Shown piece after piece: positions 38,026 to 49,511 of a stretch of DNA of 64,000 nucleotides. The translations under genes and the position numbers were made by a program. This DNA is from Acidimicrobiales bacterium (lineage in GTDB: Bacteria; Actinomycetota; Acidimicrobiia; Acidimicrobiales; Aldehydirespiratoraceae). The stretch covers positions 111,262 through 175,261 of the forward strand of contig OZ220743.1 of assembly GCA_965116965.1 (NCBI GenBank), in the 5' to 3' direction. The notes under the pieces were generated by a model that worked only from the letters and a program-made list of their open reading frames with translations, did no database searches and was not told the DNA's origin. Positions within the stretch are counted from its first letter, which is position 1. The number at the start of each line of letters is the position of its first letter.

Positions 38026-38909
38026 TGCTGGAGGGCCTCTAGGGAGCGGTTCAGGGAGTCGGCGGGGATGGGGGCCGCGCACCAGGTGACGCCTAGCTCG
38101 GCCAACTCCTGCAGGGCCTCCGAGTGGGCGTCGGGATTGAAGTCGTCGGCGACGGGGCTACCGCCGGCCAAGGTCATGAACGAGACGTCGATCTCTGCGG
38201 GGTCGCGACCGGCTGACTCGGCTTGACGCCATAGGTCGTCCAGCATCGCTCTCAAGTCGTCGAGTGTCTCCAGCGGGACCGTTCGGGCGGTGGTGGCCAG
38301 CCGTCGGGGGGCGGGGAACGGGACCCAACCGTCGGCGACGGTCGCGACACGCCGGCGGCTGAGGCGGCTGTTGCCTCCGATCCAGATCGGGATCGGCCGC
38401 TCCGGCTTGGGGTTGGCGGTCTGGCCCCGGGCCGTGAAGTTGCGGCCCTCGTAACTGAAGTCGTCGGTGGTCCACACGCCCCGCACGACCTCGATGGCCT
38501 CGTCGAACAGGTCGTTGCGCTCTTCGAAGTCCACTCCGAGGGCCCGGTACTCGCCCTTGAGGTAGCCGGTGCCCACGGCCAGCACGAACCGGCCGTCGGA
38601 CATAGCGTCGATGGTGGCCGCCGACTTAGCCACCAGGAACGGGTTGCGGTAGGGCAGCACCACCACGTTGGGGATCAACTGCACGCGCTCCGTGACCGCG
38701 GCCGTGAAGGCCAGCGCCGCGAAGGGATCGAGCGCGTCGTGGCCGCCGGCCGCCATCCAGCGGTGAGTCGGGGCGGGATGATCGGTGAAGCCAATCCCGT
38801 CGAAGCCGGCCTCCTCGGCCGCCCGGGCGAACTCCACGAGCCCTTGGCGCGTCGCGAACTCGGGGCTGCAGCGGCCCGCGGCCAGCGGGTACGTCACCGA
38901 GAACTTCAC
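37998..38909 (-). CDS. LLM-class F420-dependent oxidoreductase
   Basis: MKFSVTYPL..., FDGIGFTDHP, VVLPYRNPFLVAKSAATIDAMSDGRFVLAVGTGY and PIWIGGNS are luciferase-like monooxygenase family blocks. It uses a GTG start. Confidence 0.85.
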   Translation of the reverse strand: MKFSVTYPLAAGRCSPEFATRQGLVEFARAAEEAGFDGIGFTDHPAPTHRWMAAGGHDALDPFAALAFTAAVTERVQLIPNVVVLPYRNPFLVAKSAATIDAMSDGRFVLAVGTGYLKGEYRALGVDFEERNDLFDEAIEVVRGVWTTDDFSYEGRNFTARGQTANPKPERPIPIWIGGNSRLSRRRVATVADGWVPFPAPRRLATTARTVPLETLDDLRAMLDDLWRQAESAGRDPAEIDVSFMTLAGGSPVADDFNPDAHSEALQELAELGVTWCAAPIPADSLNRSLEALQHYGESVIGT

Positions 38910-39234
38910 GAACGAACCCTCCCGGCTGCCAACGCGAACCCGGCGATAGGCAAGAGCGCCACCGAGAACTTCACGAACGAACCCTCCCAGCTGCCAACGC
39001 GAACCCGGCGATAGGCAAGAGCGCCACCGAGAACTTCACGAACGAACCCTCCCAGCTGCCAACGCGAACCCGGCGATAGGCAAGAGCGCCACCGAGAACT
39101 TCACGAACGAACCCTCCCAGCTGCCAACGCGAACCCGGCGATAGGCAAGAGCGCCACCGAGAACGTCACGAACGAACTCTCCCAGCTCCCAGCTCGAACG
39201 CAACGGCAGGCACGAGCATCACCGAGAACTTCAC
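38906..39234 (-). repeat. tandem array of five 65-bp units, each a 22-codon mini-cistron (relay between the FGGY kinase stop and the LLM start)
   Basis: Unit starts (GTG) are at 39234, 39169, 39104, 39039 and 38974. Each reads GTG AAG/ACG TTC TCG GTG ... GGG AGG GTT CGT TCG TGA (MKFSVALLPIAGFALAAGRVRS). Each TGA overlaps the next GTG, and the final TGA overlaps the LLM GTG at 38909. Confidence 0.9.
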
Positions 39235-40559
39235 CGGTCGGCGCCCTCACGGAAGCGGCGGTAGCGCCCCTCGGCGCCGGCGGCGTGCCCGGCGCGGGGC
39301 TCCAACCGATGCGACACCCGGCCCCAGCGCCGGGCCTGCGACGTGTCGGCCTCCAGTCCGGCGGTGACCCGGCTGTGGTAGGCCGCACCGAGAGCGGCGC
39401 TATAGGGCTCGGCCGACACGTCCACGGCCAGGCCTGTCGTGTCGGCCAGCGCCTGCATCCAGGCCGGCGACTGGGTCCCGCCGCCGACGGCGACGATCCG
39501 CGAGGCGTCGAGACCGGAGAGCTCTACGTGGTGGCGCACCACGAAGCCGGCCGCCTCGTAGGCGGCCATCAGGACATGGGCCGATGTGTGGCCGACGTGA
39601 AGGTCGAGCAACTCGGCCCGGCGATCGGGATCGTGCAACGGGGTGCGCTCCCCTCTCGGATAGGGCAGCCACACGGGTAGGTCGTCACCGTCGAGCGCCA
39701 GCAGATCTCCAGAGTCCGGGTCGCCCACCAGAGCCCGGACCCGGTCGACGAACAGGCCGCCGGCGTTACTGGCCCCGCCCACGGCCATGATGCCGGCCCG
39801 GGCCGAGGGGAACGTCCACAACCCGTCGACCTCGACCCACTGATCGGTCATCACCCACGGCAGCAGCGTGGTTCCGCACATCACCAGCACGTCGCCGGCA
39901 TCGCCGCAGGGCGCGACGAGCTGCTCCCCCAGCACGTCGATGGTCCCGGCCGACACCAGGGCGCCGTCACGCTCGCCGATGGCGGCCGCCCCCGGGCTGA
40001 TGGCCGGGAGCTGCTCCGAGGTCATGCCGATCTCATCGAGCAACTCGGGCGCCCAGCCCTGCCCGTCGGACATCGGGGTCAGAGCCATGGCGGTGGAGGA
40101 GTCGAGGGCGGCCACGCCGCACAGGGCGCGGTTGGCCGCGGCCTGTGCCGGCCACAGAGCCTCCACCCCGTCACAGCCGGCCAACCAGCGAGCAAACCCG
40201 ACGGCCTCCCCGTCAGTGGCCTCAGTACCGGTTCCGACGCCTCGGCCGCGAGCGTCACCGTAGAGCAGACCAACGGTGACCGGCGTTCCGGCCGAGTCGA
40301 CTCCGCACATGGACGGCACCATGGCGGAGACGGTGACGGCGGCGATGGATCGATCGGCGGTGCCGGCCAGCATCTGGTCCCAGGCGCCGAGCACGCCGTC
40401 GATCCACGCGCCCTGAGGATCGTGCTCGAACTGGCCGGGATCGGTCGACACGACCCGGTGAGGGATCCGGGCCCGGGCCAGGACCGCACCGTCGCCGTCG
40501 GCGGCCACAGCCTTGACCGAGGTCGTCCCGATGTCGATCCCTACCGTCACCTCGTCCAT
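39231..40559 (-). CDS. FGGY-family carbohydrate kinase (xylulokinase-like)
   Basis: N-terminal VTVGIDIGTTSVKAVA, and C-terminal VAVGGGTQSPAWMQALADTTGLAV. Confidence 0.85.
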   Translation of the reverse strand: MDEVTVGIDIGTTSVKAVAADGDGAVLARARIPHRVVSTDPGQFEHDPQGAWIDGVLGAWDQMLAGTADRSIAAVTVSAMVPSMCGVDSAGTPVTVGLLYGDARGRGVGTGTEATDGEAVGFARWLAGCDGVEALWPAQAAANRALCGVAALDSSTAMALTPMSDGQGWAPELLDEIGMTSEQLPAISPGAAAIGERDGALVSAGTIDVLGEQLVAPCGDAGDVLVMCGTTLLPWVMTDQWVEVDGLWTFPSARAGIMAVGGASNAGGLFVDRVRALVGDPDSGDLLALDGDDLPVWLPYPRGERTPLHDPDRRAELLDLHVGHTSAHVLMAAYEAAGFVVRHHVELSGLDASRIVAVGGGTQSPAWMQALADTTGLAVDVSAEPYSAALGAAYHSRVTAGLEADTSQARRWGRVSHRLEPRAGHAAGAEGRYRRFREGADR

Positions 40560-40785
40560 ACGCCCTCCTCGCCACGGATGACTGCCACCCTTCGAACATC
40601 TCCGCGACAGTCATCTCCGCAACAGTCATCCCCGCTCCCTGACGCTACGCCACCGAAGCCACGCTTTGGTCCGATTCTTGCCGTGAAGCGGCCTCCTCAC
40701 CCCGAAGAGCCGCAAGACGGTCAACATCTCGGTCGAGTTGGCCGACAAGCCCCACGACGGGTAATGCGCTGGCTACGGTGGCGGT

Positions 40786-41691
40786 ATGAGTTCGCCGATT
40801 TGGGATCCGCACGGGCCAAGCCTCGTAGTGCTGAGGGACAATCTCCCCATACTCGCCGAACTCCCGGACGAGTCAATCACGTTGGTGTACATCGACCCTC
40901 CGTTCAACACCGGCCGTCGGCAGTCGAGGCAGACGCTGCGAACCACCAGAAGCGAGAAAGGCGATCGCGTCGGGTTCAAGGGTGCAACCTACAAGACAGT
41001 GAAGGGCTCGCTGTCGGCATATGACGACGCCTTCGGTGACTACTGGTCGTTCTTGGAGCCCAGGCTGGAGCAGGCATGGCGACTGCTGACAGACGATGGC
41101 ACGCTGTACCTGCACCTCGACTACCGCGAAGTCCACTACGCCAAGGTCGTGCTTGACTCACTGTTTGGCCGGGAGTGTTTCCTGAACGAGATTATTTGGG
41201 CCTACGACTACGGTGCTCGGGCGCGAAGCCGCTGGCCAGCCAAGCACGACAACATCCTCGTCTACGTGAAGAACCCCGACGCCTACCACTTCGACAACGC
41301 CACCGTCGACCGCGAGCCCTACATGGCTCCGGGCCTAGTAACACCCGAGAAGGCGGCCAAAGGCAAGTTGCCCACCGATGTCTGGTGGCACACCATCGTG
41401 TCGCCGACAGGCAAAGAGAAGACCGGCTATCCAACTCAGAAACCCGAGGGCATCCTCCGCCGTATCGTGCAAGCCAGCAGCCGACAGGGCGACTGGGTGC
41501 TCGACTTCTTCGCTGGCAGTGGCACGGCTGGTGCTGTCGCGGCTCAACTCGACCGTCGCTTCATAATGGTCGACAACAACCCAGAGGCCTACGAAGTGAT
41601 GCAAAGGCGCCTCGGGAACGGAGGGTTGCTAACATCGATCAAGTATCTGGACCTAAGCACCGACCAGCCCGCGGAGCAGACGGTTGCCTGA
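40786..41691 (+). CDS. type II DNA methyltransferase, beta-class amino-methyltransferase (N6-A or N4-C)
   Basis: Motif IV LVYIDPPFNTG near the N-terminus. TGYPTQKPEGILRRIV and AdoMet motif I VLDFFAGSGTAGAVA near the C-terminus. Confidence 0.85.
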   Translation: MSSPIWDPHGPSLVVLRDNLPILAELPDESITLVYIDPPFNTGRRQSRQTLRTTRSEKGDRVGFKGATYKTVKGSLSAYDDAFGDYWSFLEPRLEQAWRLLTDDGTLYLHLDYREVHYAKVVLDSLFGRECFLNEIIWAYDYGARARSRWPAKHDNILVYVKNPDAYHFDNATVDREPYMAPGLVTPEKAAKGKLPTDVWWHTIVSPTGKEKTGYPTQKPEGILRRIVQASSRQGDWVLDFFAGSGTAGAVAAQLDRRFIMVDNNPEAYEVMQRRLGNGGLLTSIKYLDLSTDQPAEQTVA

Positions 41692-42238
41692 CCACGAGAT
41701 TATAGATCCGGAGGTCACCCTCCTAGCGGAGATCGCGACGACACTCGAAGGTCAGTATTCAGACGACTTTTCGATGTGGGCGGGGAGTCCGTTCCGCTGG
41801 ATCAAGACCCGGCCATCAAGACACGTCGGTGCCATAGCCGAGAAGCTCGTGAGCCATTGGTGTGCCGCCAAGGATCTGAACGTGTCACGTTCCCCGGATA
41901 GCCAGGCCGACCTTGTGATCGACGGGGCGAGGGTAGAAGTGAAGTACTCCAGCCTCTGGACCGACAACGGCATCTACAAGTTCCAACAGATTCGAGACCA
42001 GAATTACGACTACTGCTTCTGTCTGGGCGTCTCGCCATTCGAAGCACACGCCTGGTTCATTCCAAAGCCGGTGTTGATGACAGACAAGCCGCCGTCTTTG
42101 GTGCCACAGCATGGCGGGCAAGCCGGTCGAGATACGAAGTGGCTGTCGTTTCCCGCCACCTCGCCCCCGGATTGGCTGGCCCCGTTCGGTGGCACGCTTT
42201 CGGAGGTTCAAGGGCTGATCTTGGAGGCCGTCCGCTAG
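41684..42238 (+). CDS. putative type II restriction endonuclease (PD-(D/E)XK-like)
   Basis: It overlaps the methyltransferase stop by 8 nt. The candidate catalytic core is PDSQADLVIDGARVEVKYSS (D...E-x-K). No other family similarity recognised. Confidence 0.5.
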   Translation: MPDHEIIDPEVTLLAEIATTLEGQYSDDFSMWAGSPFRWIKTRPSRHVGAIAEKLVSHWCAAKDLNVSRSPDSQADLVIDGARVEVKYSSLWTDNGIYKFQQIRDQNYDYCFCLGVSPFEAHAWFIPKPVLMTDKPPSLVPQHGGQAGRDTKWLSFPATSPPDWLAPFGGTLSEVQGLILEAVR

Positions 42239-42247
42239 TTTCGGCTC

Positions 42248-43219
42248 ATGAGTCGGCCTCGGGTGTTGGTTACCGCGCCCCTTCGGGGCCCTGCCCTCGA
42301 CGAGTTGCGCGACATCGCCGACGTGGTGTTCGAACCCTGGATCGAACACCAGCCGATCAAGCTCTACCGATCCCGAGACTTCGCGGCCAAGATCCGCCAC
42401 GAGGGAGCCGACATCGTCGTGTGCGAGGCCGACTCGTGCAAGGGTCCGGTGCTGGAGCTGCCGCTGACGGCCATCGCCTCCACCCGGGCCCGGCCCACCA
42501 ACGTCGATGTCGACGCGGCCACCGCGGCCGGCATTCCCGTGCTGCGCACACCTGGCCGCAACTCCGACGCCGTGGCCGAGATGACGGTGGCTCTGCTGAT
42601 GGCAGTGACCCGGTTCGTGGTCGCCGGCGACCGCGACGTGCGAGCGGGCACGATGTTCGGCGAGACCCTCCCCTACCAGCGCTACCGGGCCTGGCAGGTG
42701 GCGGGACGCACTGCCGGGCTGGTGGGACTGGGTGCCGTGGGTCGGGCCGCCAAGTGGCGCCTGGAGGGCCTGGGCATGACGATGATCGCCGCCGATCCCT
42801 ATGCCGCCGACGCCACCCACGGCCTCGACGACCTCCTGGCGACCGCTGACGTGGTGTCGATGCACGCCGCCGTAACGCCGGAGACGTCACAGATGATGGG
42901 CTCGGACCAGTTCGCGGCGATGAAGCCGGGGGCGATCTACCTCAACACGGCTCGGGCCGCACTGCACGACACCGACGCCCTGGTGGCCGCCCTGGAGTCG
43001 GGCCATCTGGCCGGCGCCGGCCTCGACCACTTCGAGGGCGAGATCCTGCCCACCGACCATCCCCTCACCGCCATGGACAACGTGGTGCTCACACCTCACA
43101 TCGGCGGGGCCACCTACGACGTGGAGAGCAAGCAGGCGGCCATCGTGGTGGCCGACATCAAGGCCATCCTGTCGGGCGGCAAGCCGCTCCACTGCGCCAA
43201 CCCGGAGGTCCTCGAGTGA
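42248..43219 (+). CDS. D-isomer-specific 2-hydroxyacid dehydrogenase (phosphoglycerate-dehydrogenase-like)
   Basis: NAD-binding GRTAGLVGLGAVGRAAKWRLEGLGM, catalytic region NTARAALHDTDALVAAL and TPHIGGAT. Confidence 0.85.
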   Translation: MSRPRVLVTAPLRGPALDELRDIADVVFEPWIEHQPIKLYRSRDFAAKIRHEGADIVVCEADSCKGPVLELPLTAIASTRARPTNVDVDAATAAGIPVLRTPGRNSDAVAEMTVALLMAVTRFVVAGDRDVRAGTMFGETLPYQRYRAWQVAGRTAGLVGLGAVGRAAKWRLEGLGMTMIAADPYAADATHGLDDLLATADVVSMHAAVTPETSQMMGSDQFAAMKPGAIYLNTARAALHDTDALVAALESGHLAGAGLDHFEGEILPTDHPLTAMDNVVLTPHIGGATYDVESKQAAIVVADIKAILSGGKPLHCANPEVLE

Positions 43220-43260
43220 GCATCGCTGCCAGCCATCCCAACCCGGAGGTCCTCGAGTGA
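43216..43260 (+). repeat. 41-bp duplicated gene junction forming one 14-codon relay mini-cistron
   Basis: caacccggaggtcctcgagtgagcatcg occurs at 43198 and again at 43239. GTG AGC ATC GCT GCC AGC CAT CCC AAC CCG GAG GTC CTC GAG TGA encodes MSIAASHPNPEVLE. Its GTG overlaps the dehydrogenase TGA, and its TGA overlaps the aldolase GTG at 43257. Confidence 0.85.
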
Positions 43261-43916
43261 GCATCGAAGGAGACCGTCAGGATCCTGTCCACCAGGAGGT
43301 AGCCGACGTCTCGCAGCAGATGGAGCGGGCCGGACTGGTGGTGGGCACGGCCGGCAACGTGTCGGGCCGCCGCAGCGACGGCTCGGTCTGCCTCACCCCG
43401 TCGTCCACCCCCTACCCCGACGTCACCGCCGGCAACCTCGCCGTCCTCAGCCTCGAGGGCGAGCACCTGGCCGGATCGGGCCAGCCGTCCACCGAGAAGG
43501 CCATGCACCTGGCCTGCTACAACGCCTTCGAAGAGGTCGGCGGCGTCGTCCACTGCCATCCGCCCCACGCCTCGATGTTCGCGGTGGCCCACCAGCCCAT
43601 CCCGGCCAGCATCGAGGAGGTGATCGTCTACGTGGGCGGCGACGTGCCGGTGGCCGACTACGCCACCACCGGCACCGACGAACTGGCCGCAGAGGTGGTG
43701 CGCCACCTGGCCGACCGGGGCGCGGTGCTGATGGCCAACCACGGCCTGCTGTGCGTGGGCAAGTCGCCGTCCGACGCGCTGCACACTGCCCTGGTGGTGG
43801 AGCACACCGCCAAGATCATGTTCGGGGCCCGCGTCCTGGGCGGCGTCGTATCCCTGCCCGAGAAGATCGCCAGGGACTTCGCCGGCATTTACGGCTACAT
43901 CCGCAGCACCTGGTGA
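43257..43916 (+). CDS. class II aldolase/adducin-family protein
   Basis: GTAGNVSGRR..., EKAMHLACY and HCHPPHASMFA are motifs of L-fuculose-phosphate-aldolase-like proteins. Confidence 0.85.
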   Translation: MSIEGDRQDPVHQEVADVSQQMERAGLVVGTAGNVSGRRSDGSVCLTPSSTPYPDVTAGNLAVLSLEGEHLAGSGQPSTEKAMHLACYNAFEEVGGVVHCHPPHASMFAVAHQPIPASIEEVIVYVGGDVPVADYATTGTDELAAEVVRHLADRGAVLMANHGLLCVGKSPSDALHTALVVEHTAKIMFGARVLGGVVSLPEKIARDFAGIYGYIRSTW

Positions 43917-43930
43917 CCGAAGGAGGACAC

Positions 43931-44770
43931 ATGCAGCACATGCTCTACGAGACCGACGGGCGGGTGGCGGTGATCACCCTTAACCGTCCCGAGAAAGCCA
44001 ACGCGGTCAGCGGCCTGACGCTCAACGAGATGGACGAGTGCTTCACCCGAGCCGCCGACGACGCCGACGTGAGGGTGATCGTGCTGCGGTCGGTCGGCAA
44101 GCACTTCTGCGCCGGTCACGACCTCTCCGGCAGCGACGAGGCCCTGGAGAAGGCCGCGGCAGGCGAGGGCAGCCCGGCCAAGGGCAGCTTCGTGGACTGG
44201 AAGGAGCGGGGCCTCGAAGCCATCTACGAATGGGAGACGATCCACTACCTCGGCTACAGCCGGCGCTGGCGCGACATCCCCAAGCCCACCATCGCGGCGG
44301 TGCAGGGCCAGTGCATCGCCGGGGGACTGATGCTGTGCTGGCCCTGCGATCTGATCATCGCCGCCGACAACGCCATGTTCTCCGATCCGGTGGCCCGCAT
44401 GGGCATCGGCGGGGTGGAGTACCACGGCCACACCTGGGAGCTCGGCCCCCGCAAGGCCAAGGAGATGCTGTTCACCGCTCGCCGGATCGGCGCGGCGGAG
44501 GCCGAGGCGGCCGGCATGGTCAACAGGGTCGTTCCCCTCGACGACCTCCACACCGAGACCATGGCGCTGGCCCATGAGATCGCCCAGATGCACCCCTTCG
44601 CTCTGGCCCAGTCCAAGCGGGCCGTCAACCGCACCATGGACATCCAGGGCTTCTACTCGGCGCTCCAGGCCGTGTTCGACATCCACCAGACGGGCCACGG
44701 CAACGCCCTGTCGGTGGGCGGATACCCGATCCTCACCGGCCTGACCGACATGAAGAAGTCCCAGTCCTGA
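43931..44770 (+). CDS. enoyl-CoA hydratase/isomerase (crotonase) family protein
   Basis: AGGAGGA lies upstream of ATG 43931. VAVITLNRPEKANAV, FCAGHDL and AAVQGQCIAGGLML are crotonase blocks. Confidence 0.85.
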   Translation: MQHMLYETDGRVAVITLNRPEKANAVSGLTLNEMDECFTRAADDADVRVIVLRSVGKHFCAGHDLSGSDEALEKAAAGEGSPAKGSFVDWKERGLEAIYEWETIHYLGYSRRWRDIPKPTIAAVQGQCIAGGLMLCWPCDLIIAADNAMFSDPVARMGIGGVEYHGHTWELGPRKAKEMLFTARRIGAAEAEAAGMVNRVVPLDDLHTETMALAHEIAQMHPFALAQSKRAVNRTMDIQGFYSALQAVFDIHQTGHGNALSVGGYPILTGLTDMKKSQS

Positions 44771-44810
44771 GAACCGTCAGCTAGGGGAGCCCCCCACCGG
44801 CTGACCTAGC

Positions 44811-46394
44811 GTGAGCCGTGTGAGTCTCTGGGAGCGGCCGGACGTTCACGCCCGGCGCTGGTTCCTGCTCGGCGTGCTGAGCCTGACCCTGGTGCTGGTG
44901 GTCATGTCGGTCTCGGGCCTGAACGTGGCCCTGGCCACCTTGCAGCGGGATGTGGGTGTCACCGGGCCGCAGCTGCAGTGGATCGTCAACACCTACGCGC
45001 TCGCCTTCGGCGGGCTGCTGATGACCGGCGGAGCCATCGGCGACCGCTACGGCCGCAAGGGCGCCCTGCTCGGAGGCCTGCTCGTGTTCGGGCTCGGCGC
45101 GCTCCTCGGAGGCTTGGCCGACTCGGCCGAGGTCATCCTGGTCGCCCGGGGAGCCATGGGGGTGGCGGCCGCCTTCGTCATGCCGGCCACGCTGTCGCTG
45201 CTGATCGAGATCTTCCCGCCGCCGGAGAGGCCGACCGCCATCGCGGTGTGGTCGGGCTTCGCCGGGGGCGGCGCCGCCATCGGGCCCGCGCTGACCGGCC
45301 TGTTCGTGACCGGATGGTGGTTCGTGCCGTCGTGGGGCTGGGAGGCCGGCTTCCTCTACAACGTCCCGGTGGTGGCGGTGGTGATGGTCGCGGTGGTGCT
45401 GTGGCTGCCCCGATCCCGGGACGAGCACCCCCGGCATCTCGACCCTGCCGGAGCGGCGCTGTCCATCGTGGCCATGACCGCCCTCATCTACGGCATCATC
45501 GAGGGACCCGAGCAGGGCTGGACATCGGCACCGGTGCTCTCGGCCTTCGCGGTGGCGGTCGTCTTCGGTGCGGTCCTGCTGGGGTGGCAGCAGCGAGCCC
45601 GCCATCCGATGCTGCCGCTGGAACTGTTCGGCGACCGGCGCTTCAGCATCGGCTCGGCCGTGGTCACCATGACGTTCGTCGTGATGATCGGGTTCTGGTT
45701 CCTGTTCGCGCTCTACGTGCAGTTCGTCCTGGGATACTCCGCCCTGGAGGCGGGGCTGGCGACCATGCCGGAGGCGCTGGCGTCGATGGTTGTGGCCCCG
45801 TTCACCGCCCCGCTCGCCGCCAGGTACGGATCGCGCCGGATCATGGCGGTCGGCTTCGCGGTGTTGGCGCTCACATTCCTGCCGCTGGCGATGGTCGACA
45901 CCGATACCAGCTATTGGTTCCTTCTGGGACCGCTGGTGCTGGCCGGGGCGGGTCTCAGCCTGGCCATGACCCCGGCCACCAACGACATCATGGTCGCCAC
46001 TCCCTACGACAAGGCCGGCATCGGCTCGGCCGTCAACGACACCGCCCGCGAGCTGGGGGCGGCGCTGGGCATCGCCACGCTGGGCGCCCTGTCCACCTCG
46101 ATCTACCGCAGCACGGTGGACGTGGCCCAGCTACCGCCCGAGGTGGCCTCCCCGGCGGCCGAGTCGATGGGTGCGGCCATCGAGGCCGCCTACCAGCTGT
46201 CCCGATCGGGCACGCTGGGCGAGGCCGCGGCTCAGGCGACGATCACCGAGACGGGGCAGGCCTTCACCACTGCCTTCGCCCAGACGATGGCGATATCGGG
46301 CGTAGTGTCGGCCCTGGCCGCGGTCGCGCTGCTAGTCGGCCACCTCGCCGAGGCCCGCGCCCGCCCCAGAGGCCGACTGGTAGGCGGCGGATGA
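44811..46394 (+). CDS. MFS transporter, DHA2 (EmrB/QacA, 14-TM) type
   Basis: 527 aa with about 14 hydrophobic segments. Motif GAIGDRYGRKGALLGGL (the MFS motif A-like G-x-x-x-D-R-x-G-R-K). Confidence 0.85.
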   Translation: MSRVSLWERPDVHARRWFLLGVLSLTLVLVVMSVSGLNVALATLQRDVGVTGPQLQWIVNTYALAFGGLLMTGGAIGDRYGRKGALLGGLLVFGLGALLGGLADSAEVILVARGAMGVAAAFVMPATLSLLIEIFPPPERPTAIAVWSGFAGGGAAIGPALTGLFVTGWWFVPSWGWEAGFLYNVPVVAVVMVAVVLWLPRSRDEHPRHLDPAGAALSIVAMTALIYGIIEGPEQGWTSAPVLSAFAVAVVFGAVLLGWQQRARHPMLPLELFGDRRFSIGSAVVTMTFVVMIGFWFLFALYVQFVLGYSALEAGLATMPEALASMVVAPFTAPLAARYGSRRIMAVGFAVLALTFLPLAMVDTDTSYWFLLGPLVLAGAGLSLAMTPATNDIMVATPYDKAGIGSAVNDTARELGAALGIATLGALSTSIYRSTVDVAQLPPEVASPAAESMGAAIEAAYQLSRSGTLGEAAAQATITETGQAFTTAFAQTMAISGVVSALAAVALLVGHLAEARARPRGRLVGGG

Positions 46395-46556
46395 GCGGCG
46401 CCTCTCACCCACCCAGCGAGGCCGTGGCCCGAGCGGCCCGTGAGCGAAGCGAACAACAGCGGGAAGCAACATGCTTCATCGCGACGTCGTTCGATTCATT
46501 TGCACGGACCGGATAACCGTCGAACAACAGCGGGAAGCAACACGCCTCATCGCGAC
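46395..46556 (+). repeat. copy of the dispersed intergenic element plus an internal 36-nt direct duplication
   Basis: agcgaggccgtggcccgagcggcccgtgagcgaagcgaacaacagcggga, then cgaacaacagcgggaagcaaca(t/c)gc(t/c)tcatcgcgac at 46450 and 46521. Confidence 0.8.
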
Positions 46557-48797: not shown

Positions 48798-49231
48798 CGG
48801 GCGTCACCGCCCAACCGCTCGGCCTCTGCAGGACGGAACAGCGGAACGTGCCACTCGCCGCTCTCCTCGAACAGCACCTCGACCCGCATCCCGATCTCGA
48901 CCTCGTCGATGTCGCAGTCCACGATGTTGGTGCCGATCCGCACCGTCGGATCCTCGTCGAGTTCGACGAGCGCGAAGACATAGGGCGGCGTGAACCCCGG
49001 GATCCACTCCTTGCGATTGATCGTGTACGTGGCCACGGTGCCGGTTCCGGCCACCGGCTCGGGGCCGACCCGGCGCGAGTGGCAGAAGGGGCAGGCCGGG
49101 CCGGGCGGGTGGACCCAGCGGGAGCATTCGCCGCAACGCTGGATCCTGAGCCGGCCGTCGGCCCCGGAACGCCAGTAGAACTCGCTCTCGGGCGAGGCCA
49201 GCACGAACCGGGGCGGGTTGTCCGCGCTCAT
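48794..49231 (-). CDS. Zn-ribbon/OB-fold protein (DUF35), thiolase partner
   Basis: Rubredoxin-like CGECSRWVHPPGPACPFC followed by an OB-fold region. It lies immediately downstream of an SCP-x-type thiolase. Confidence 0.85.
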   Translation of the reverse strand: MSADNPPRFVLASPESEFYWRSGADGRLRIQRCGECSRWVHPPGPACPFCHSRRVGPEPVAGTGTVATYTINRKEWIPGFTPPYVFALVELDEDPTVRIGTNIVDCDIDEVEIGMRVEVLFEESGEWHVPLFRPAEAERLGGDAR

Positions 49232-49511
49232 GACGGTCCCCTGGTCAGCCGGTTGTCCGCGCTCACGACAGGCACCGAGTCAGCCGGTTGTCCGCGCTCA
49301 TGACGGTCCCCTGGTCAGCCGGTTGTCGGCGCTCACGACAGGCACCGAGTCAGCCGGTTGTCCGCGCTCATGACGGTCCCCTGGTCAGCCGGTTGTCGGC
49401 GCTCACGACAGGCACCGAGTCAGCCGGTTGTCCGCGCTCATGACGGTCCCCTGGTCAGCCGGTTGTCGGCGCTCACGACAGGCACCGAGTCAGCCGGTTG
49501 TCGGCGCTCAT
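49228..49511 (-). repeat. tandem array of eight 35-bp units (four 70-bp double units), each a 12-codon mini-cistron (relay between the thiolase stop and the DUF35 start)
   Basis: Starts at 49511, 49476, 49441, 49406, 49371, 49336, 49301 and 49266 alternate ATG and GTG. ATG AGC GCS GAC AAC CGG CTG ACT CGG TGC CTG TCG TGA encodes MSADNRLTRCLS, and GTG AGC GCC GAC AAC CGG CTG ACC AGG GGA CCG TCA TGA encodes SADNRLTRGPS. Every stop overlaps the next start, and the last overlaps the DUF35 ATG at 49231. Confidence 0.9.

Follow-up and report, generated by a model that had tools for sequence, protein, structure and literature searches.

The junction described here lies in a 64,000-nucleotide (nt) stretch of DNA, referred to as the window, which corresponds to positions 111,262 to 175,261 of contig OZ220743.1 (assembly GCA_965116965.1) of an Acidimicrobiales bacterium assigned to the Aldehydirespiratoraceae. 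Between the genes encoding a D-isomer-specific 2-hydroxyacid dehydrogenase and a class II aldolase/adducin-type protein, the window carries an additional 41 nt, and with them a 14-codon mini open reading frame (mini-ORF) that overlaps the stop codon of the first gene as well as the start codon of the second. We interpret this insert as a single unit of a variable-number tandem repeat (VNTR) that arose locally and is situated on a translationally coupled junction, a reading to which a probability of roughly 0.75 is assigned. An initial annotation of the sequence had called for comparison of the orthologous junctions in relatives, and this comparison revealed 0, 1, 2, 3, 4, or about 8 units at the same site.

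The repeated junction and its counterparts in relatives

A repeat search of the window detected an exact 29-nt direct repeat (CCAACCCGGAGGTCCTCGAGTGAGCATCG) at 43197-43225 and 43238-43266, with a start-to-start spacing of 41 nt; the two exact copies are one base longer than initially annotated. The features of the junction and of the two genes that flank it are:

42248 to 43219, plus strand: D-isomer-specific 2-hydroxyacid dehydrogenase gene (PF02826, E 2.5e-50; PF00389), with C-terminus HCANPEVLE and stop codon TGA at 43217-43219
43197 to 43225, plus strand: repeat copy 1, comprising dehydrogenase tail codons, a Shine-Dalgarno (SD)-like GGAGG at 43204-43208, GTGA at 43216-43219, and the next 6 nt
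43216 to 43260, plus strand: relay mini-ORF encoding VSIAASHPNPEVLE, 14 codons, 45 nt with its stop (from translation)
43226 to 43237, plus strand: 12-nt spacer CTGCCAGCCATC, the portion of the 41-nt unit without an adjacent duplicate
43238 to 43266, plus strand: repeat copy 2, comprising the mini-ORF tail, a second GGAGG at 43245-43249, GTGA at 43257-43260, and the aldolase start
43257 to 43916, plus strand: class II aldolase/adducin-type gene, 219 amino acids (aa), GTG start (PF00596, E 6.6e-49, residues 13-188)
43291 to 43300, plus strand: ACCAGGAGGT within the aldolase gene (codons H-Q-E-V), nearly identical to ACCCGGAGGT at 43200-43209 in the dehydrogenase tail

Read along the strand, the junction consists of CAC TGC GCC AAC CCG GAG GTC CTC GAG TGA GCATCG, followed by CTGCCAGCCATC, CCAACCCGGAGGTCCTCGAGTGAGCATCG, and AAGGAG. 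The first repeat copy holds the dehydrogenase TGA together with the overlapping GTG (43216) that opens the mini-ORF, and the mini-ORF TGA (43258-43260) in turn overlaps the true aldolase GTG (43257). Translation of 43216-43260 yields a peptide that repeats the N-terminus of the aldolase and the C-terminus of the dehydrogenase (NPEVLE), and the unit length follows as 41 = 45 - 4 when the 45-nt ORF is counted with its stop; the anatomy given in the initial annotation was correct in each of these respects. No match to the 29-nt repeat was obtained in 100 dinucleotide-preserving shuffles, even with 3 mismatches allowed, and a pattern search tolerating up to 3 mismatches detected only the two copies in the window and no third copy across the 4,121,895-bp single-contig genome.

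In this genome (designated G000) the periodicity spans just 70 nt, or 1.7 copies. Since the 12-nt spacer duplicates nothing adjacent, the sequence of G000 does not by itself establish the "single 41-bp duplication" that was initially proposed; a complete 41-nt period is visible only in a relative. That relative (L129) is a sponge metagenome contig (LXNJ01058402.1), recovered by a protein-guided scan of metagenome contigs, in which three successive mini-ORFs encode VSIAASH(T/P)NPEVL(Q/E) followed by a stop. Its array was assigned a period of 41, 3.6 copies, and 98% identity by Tandem Repeats Finder, with a consensus one base off the unit of G000. Searches with the exact junction pattern in metagenome contigs and with the exact aldolase protein in public assemblies gave no match.

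The comparison within the genus comprised 25 genomes of Ca. Aldehydirespirator (Acidimicrobiales; mostly sponge-associated and metagenome-assembled) with both genes on one contig. At each locus the dehydrogenase tail and the aldolase head were placed by tblastn, and the reading frames were followed onward from the dehydrogenase stop. The junctions found were:

direct NTGA overlap, zero units: 15 of the 25 genomes
one 41-nt unit: G000, G018 (identical), G044 (one substitution), and G012 (a diverged homologue encoding VTGPVSHPNPEVLQ)
47-nt units, 4 mini-ORFs encoding MSDGTATEPVHPEVLR: G023
a second type of 47-nt unit: G017 (2 units) and G003 (about 8 units)
59-nt units, 8 mini-ORFs encoding VTHTTATNPSHRPHPQETHQ: G052
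86-nt units, 2 in number: G048
an unrelated 149-nt insert: G011

The 41-nt unit itself varies in number across lineages, as expected of a VNTR: it is absent from some genomes (e.g., G021, G008, and G016), present once in G000, G018, G044, and G012, and present three times in L129. Outside the genus the junction is nearly always a direct NTGA, TAATG, or TGATG overlap that follows a conserved NPEV(L/F)x tail and its stop. This near-universality indicates that the direct overlap is ancestral and that the dehydrogenase truly ends at the first TGA. Consistently, the C-terminus NPEVL(x) stops at the first TGA in every relative with a direct junction, other genera included. The initial annotation had named one finding that would overturn it, namely that the spacer and the second copy form part of a longer dehydrogenase tail, and the relatives, with dehydrogenases ending at the first TGA, do not bear this out.

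Two deviating junctions were encountered. The 149-nt insert of G011 (OZ242033.1; L015/L041) separates the aldolase GTG from the dehydrogenase stop, with no stop/start overlap, and includes a reversed copy of a dispersed repeat core (GGCCCGAGCGGCCCGTGAGCGnAGCGAACAnGAGCGG), of which G000 contains approximately 254 copies with up to 5 substitutions. Some of these core copies in G000 read as GTGA-chained mini-ORFs themselves (...GPSGP-stop/VSEANKSG...). Moreover, a locus of another genus (L076; OY730477.1, 826-1159) contains the same junction with a 107-nt array of 2.2 copies (TAATG, -1 links) and a 60-nt array of 2.7 copies, indicating that the junction is prone to expansion beyond Ca. Aldehydirespirator.

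Register of the units and translation signals

All periods observed in the genus (41, 47, 47, 59, and 86 nt), as well as the longer first units of 83, 80, and 68 nt, equal 2 mod 3; in no other register would an ORF that begins on one NTGA end on the following one. For the period of 41 this means that the mini-ORF opened on the first GTGA closes exactly on the following GTGA. The chain that leads from stop to start through the mini-ORFs is unbroken in 9 of 9 genus arrays, including those of G003 and G048, in which the dehydrogenase stop is mutated to TTGA. By our own calculation, the chance that all unit lengths fall in this register is approximately 1/81, if at least 4 independent unit lengths and equal thirds are assumed. 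Selection appears to remove expansions that break the chain, and we propose that every observed period is 2 mod 3 because such expansions would be eliminated.

Chained junctions of this design recur in G000; counted across the whole genome, repeated NTGA junctions between long open frames are spaced by 2 mod 3 in 15 cases, by 1 mod 3 in 5, and by 0 mod 3 in 7. A genome-wide scan for NTGA-linked short ORFs without a filter produced thousands of chance chains and was replaced by scans for exact direct repeats; a crude count of NTGA inside repeats did not discriminate.

The mutated stop codon in G003 (L045) and G048 (L046) has a further consequence for the coding sequence, in that the dehydrogenase gains an 18- or 31-residue tail from the first unit and ends on a later GTGA. 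The ORF that follows the extended dehydrogenase of G003 crosses three units out of register and subsequently rejoins the chain.

Both GTG codons of the window (43216 and 43257) are preceded, at a distance of 7 nt, by GGAGG, for which pairing with the 16S rRNA tail of the same genome (GATCACCTCCTTT) is predicted at -10.7 kcal/mol, a value that is reached by 6% of background windows. The dehydrogenase codons for the conserved P-E-V supply this SD sequence, and each unit consequently holds an SD, a start, and a stop. In G052, G003, G017, and G048, both the unit starts and the aldolase start have SD pairing at background level (-2.9 to -5.8 overall, and -2.9 to -5.4 in the first three), which implies that translation of the aldolase in these genomes would have to depend on the chain. 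Among the indirect indications that the relay may operate, this weak SD pairing is the strongest.

A ribosome that terminates on the dehydrogenase stop would, in the mechanism proposed, reinitiate on the overlapping GTG, read 14 codons, terminate on the aldolase start, and reinitiate there. The coupling of the aldolase to the dehydrogenase would thereby be relayed rather than broken, and direct initiation at either of the GGAGG-GTG sites would also be possible. In view of the strong SD in G000, the presence of one unit probably changes little. RNA folding predicted -52.2 kcal/mol for the transcript with one unit (151 nt) and -36.5 kcal/mol for a reconstructed transcript with zero units (110 nt), without any distinctive structure, and we propose no structural role for the unit. 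The peptide encoded by the mini-ORF is most likely without function.

Origin, turnover, and competing explanations

The units appear to be composed of the ends of the genes that flank them. Their 5' part corresponds to the aldolase head of the species concerned (MSDGTAT.., VTHTTAT.., MSNT.., VNDxxPA..), and a 3' part similar to the dehydrogenase tail is seen in the 41-nt type and the types of G023 and G048; the latter correspondence is unclear in G017, G003, and G052. The 12-nt spacer with its flanks (GCTGCCAGCCATCCCA, 16 nt) matches the aldolase codons A-A-S-D-P ahead of the conserved PVH in a relative (G041) at 14 of 16 positions, a score that is reached by none of 3481 background windows of the locus. 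In eight other relatives the same aldolase site matches at 11-12 of 16 positions, with 1-7 background windows per locus scoring as high. From these matches we infer that the spacer would be a relic of an older aldolase N-terminus (codons A-A-S-D/H). A derivation of the spacer from a diverged copy of the dehydrogenase was rejected; the in-register match is about 3 of 13 by eye, and the best match (11 of 16) lies 8 nt off register and is at background level.

The duplication of 41 nt would have taken place in the ancestry of one Ca. Aldehydirespirator clade, by replication slippage or by unequal recombination at very short homologies, and the copied stretch would have extended from the dehydrogenase Asn codon (AAC CCG GAG GTC...) via GTGA as far as the Pro codon in the D-P-V-H motif of the aldolase. 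The resulting unit would be a chimera, in which the older aldolase head V-S-I-A-A-S-[D>H]-P is fused in frame to the dehydrogenase tail N-P-E-V-L-E-stop, and the present aldolase head (VSIEGDRQ...) would have changed after the duplication. In the units of G023, G017, and G003 the switch from aldolase head to tail falls within ACC(C/A)GGAGGT motifs, which encode N-P-E-V in the dehydrogenase and H-Q-E-V in the aldolase; the motif at 43291-43300 would accordingly be a putative slippage partner behind the 47-nt units of relatives.

Variation is also apparent in the aldolase heads themselves. The residues ahead of the Pfam domain, which starts at residue 13, differ in length and sequence between relatives, and the 8-16 residues that precede the conserved DPVHQEV do so widely. 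In-frame internal duplications occur in several heads, including DPAATDPVH (G020), DPVAAADPVH (G048), and TEPTATEPAATEP (first unit of G023), which suggests repeated cycles of duplication and decay.

Maximum-likelihood trees were constructed from the flanking coding sequence with the junction left out. The holders of the 41-nt unit (G000, G044, G018, L129, and G012) are placed in one clade (support 93/95), where they are interleaved with zero-unit genomes, and the trees require a minimum of 7 state changes within the genus. The simplest reading is a single origin of the unit, after which it was precisely lost several times through its 29-nt direct repeats and expanded once, in L129. Units are easily gained and lost, and other lineages have built their own units of 47, 59, and 86 nt. 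As the unit is common to one clade, the single unit in the window is old, and it is probably a tolerated, near-neutral allele. These results modify two proposals of the initial annotation. The 41-nt unit is backed by the junctions of relatives, but it is not a fresh copy of the present junction, the spacer being older and clade-wide. Likewise, the same unit does occur at 0, 1, and 3 copies in the clade, yet the single unit in the window may be a contraction remnant and need not be the first, one-unit stage of an expansion.

Several points weigh against the interpretation as a coupled, locally made repeat. The rule that periods are 2 mod 3 is based on just 4-6 independent unit types, and in L076, which belongs to another genus, the 107-nt array (2 mod 3) is accompanied by a 60-nt sub-array (0 mod 3), with no overlap where the array finally joins the aldolase. 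Homologous recombination between lineages fits the distribution of the 41-nt unit equally as well as a single origin with at least 4 losses. To derive the spacer, a G>C change (GAT>CAT) would be required, along with a later replacement of the head in the terminal copy (AAS > EGDRQ), both of which are plausible. The passage of ribosomes through the mini-ORF would follow from anatomy and comparative constraint, and the strong GGAGG ahead of the aldolase GTG could drive aldolase translation independently of a relay.

Apart from a near-neutral repeat, an adaptive rheostat could be envisaged, in which the number of units is selected to tune the aldolase:dehydrogenase ratio in a heritable and reversible manner, with each relay step losing ribosomes or adding an initiation site. 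The range of 0 to 8 units among close relatives, with its at least 7 state changes, is in line with such a function, as is the near-identity of units within long arrays (7 identical units in G052), which suggests recent turnover. The aldolase start in long arrays, moreover, is without a strong SD, and output should therefore follow the chain; for mycobacterial interspersed repetitive units (MIRUs), an influence of copy number on expression of the host operon has been hypothesised (PMC3635867). Nevertheless, high turnover would be expected just as much of neutral DNA prone to slippage, in a genome that harbours 449 tandem arrays with a period of at least 20 nt, 15 of the 25 genomes manage without any unit, and both GTG codons in the window keep a full GGAGG, such that one unit may alter little. 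We consider selection for tuning unlikely. A function of the 14-residue peptide as a micro-protein is much less probable still. The mini-ORF is intact in G000, G018, G044, and G012 and three times in L129, but its intactness is already accounted for by flank identity and the need for an open chain. The encoded peptide joins the ends of two proteins, other unit types at this junction specify peptides of very different sequence and length (16, 20, and 29 aa), and 15 relatives have no such peptide.

The unit could also have arrived as a mobile element, resembling a MIRU or a miniature inverted-repeat transposable element, that inserted at the start codon instead of arising by local duplication. 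Its layout is that of MIRUs, whose units measure 40-100 bp, enclose an ORF, and overlap their neighbours with -4 spacing on either side (PMC12548453; PMC3184786), and G000 does contain dispersed small repeats, one of which (the family of about 254 copies) occupies this very junction in G011. An insertion is nevertheless hard to reconcile with the confinement of the unit to this locus in the genome (up to 3 mismatches), with the identity of 29 of its 41 nt to the local junction and the match of the other 12 to aldolase N-terminal codons of relatives, and with the observation that the unit types of other species follow their own flanks; we deem it very improbable. The slightest probability is given to an artefact of assembly or sequencing, or to a mis-called gene end with the second copy belonging to a longer dehydrogenase. 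The genome is metagenome-assembled, and short tandem duplications are prone to mis-assembly, but the identical insert is found in the independently assembled complete chromosome of G018, and a form with one substitution in a short-read contig (G044). Moreover, G012 has a diverged homologue, L129, an unrelated metagenome contig, has three units, and the dehydrogenase ends in NPEVL(x) and a stop in all relatives with a direct junction.

Known repeat systems, genomic context, and meaning

MIRUs are elements of 40-100 bp, present at about 40-50 per genome and possibly mobile, with ORFs that overlap those of their neighbours (PMC3184786). They are located at start codons, and the ORF inside them is coupled with -4 spacing; among prokaryotic coupling motifs, the -4 NTGA overlap is the commonest (PMC12548453). 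Supply et al. (1997), as rendered in PMC12548453 and PMC3184786, describe tandem units of this size between co-directional operon genes, with little effect expected on downstream translation. The junction resembles this arrangement in the 41-nt unit between co-directional genes (1.7 copies here and 3.6 in L129), in the -4 GTGA overlaps at 43216-43219 and 43257-43260, and in the variability of copy number between lineages. It differs in being restricted to two copies at one locus in 4.12 Mb (up to 3 mismatches), whereas MIRUs are, in the same accounts, dispersed, thought to be mobile, and bounded by imperfect terminal inverted repeats. Empty sites exist in 15 genomes, as they would for a foreign insert, yet the filling is identical to the flanks at 29 of 41 nt and aldolase-like for the rest; the 41-nt unit derives from the adjoining ends of the genes on either side, and distinct species have built distinct units at this one junction. 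Given this derivation from local flanks, homology to the mycobacterial MIRU consensus would not be expected. By analogy, the junction repeat may work like a MIRU without being a member of the MIRU family.

Two further systems share elements with the junction. Ordinary NTGA (-4) coupling uses the same overlap motif, with the SD of the downstream gene located within the upstream coding sequence (PMC12548453); here, in contrast, the junction is multiplied, and coupling would pass through one intermediate mini-cistron, and elsewhere through up to 8. In the synthetic bicistronic design, as outlined in PMC12548453 (its ref. 78), a short leader ORF holds the SD and its stop overlaps the start of the target gene, to which a translating ribosome is thereby brought, whereas the present junction is natural, born of duplication, and chained behind a full-length gene instead of being placed at a 5' end. 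No paper on locally made junction repeats of this kind was found in a literature search.

The window contains two other relay arrays, one with a 65-bp period (38906-39234, 5 units) and one with a 35-bp period (49228-49511, 8 units). Their chains were re-derived by an NTGA scan, and that of the 65-bp array also by the repeat-restricted scan. The initial claim that the 41-nt unit obeys the same arithmetic as these arrays holds, as all three share the 3n-4 length and GTGA/ATGA chaining. They differ in number, with 5 and 8 units versus one, and the 41-nt locus, unlike the other two, has a full allelic series in relatives and a traceable unit origin. The genome as a whole has a G+C content of 68%, and many of its 449 tandem arrays in 4.12 Mb are 98-100% identical. 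A family of approximately 71-nt repeats with internal inverted repeats (GAATTGGCAGC...GCTGCCAATTC) forms tandem arrays at many loci of G000, and outside the window, at 474572-474895 of the same genome, five successive 6-codon mini-ORFs (VTTERA and a stop) are GTGA-chained after a long ORF with a period of 17 nt.

Neither terminator-like nor promoter-like sites were found in 40500-46500, and the dehydrogenase, aldolase, hydratase, and major facilitator superfamily genes look like one operon. The listed ORF of the enoyl-CoA hydratase (43751-44770) opens at a GTG (43751) within the aldolase gene; its true start is most likely the ATG at 43932, located 5 nt past AAGGAGG and 15 nt past the aldolase stop.

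MIRU-type repeats are common typing markers, of which the origin and the translational effect are largely conjecture. At the junction described here, the MIRU architecture arises from the flanking genes themselves, at least 4 times independently in one genus, which makes the junction a candidate birth route for MIRU-like elements. The constant register of 2 mod 3 provides comparative evidence that coupling is under selection strong enough to filter the duplications that survive. On the practical side, gene callers will miss mini-ORFs of this type, and short-read assemblers may collapse or break the arrays. The single unit of the window is modest on its own; its value lies in the allelic series as a natural experiment on coupling, since junctions with 0, 1, 3, 4, and 8 units, with and without an SD, constitute a natural series for the efficiency of ribosome hand-off through mini-cistrons. 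As a tentative extension, which we hold with little confidence, stop/start junctions in Acidimicrobiia may breed MIRU-type modules that combine an SD, a start, and a stop, are made by slippage, and are kept in the 3n+2 register by selection; their copy number would act as a heritable dial of stoichiometry, and dispersed families of the MIRU kind could descend from modules made locally in this way. If this were true, the 0, 1, 3, 4, and 8 units found across the genus would represent a natural titration series of the stoichiometry of the two enzymes.

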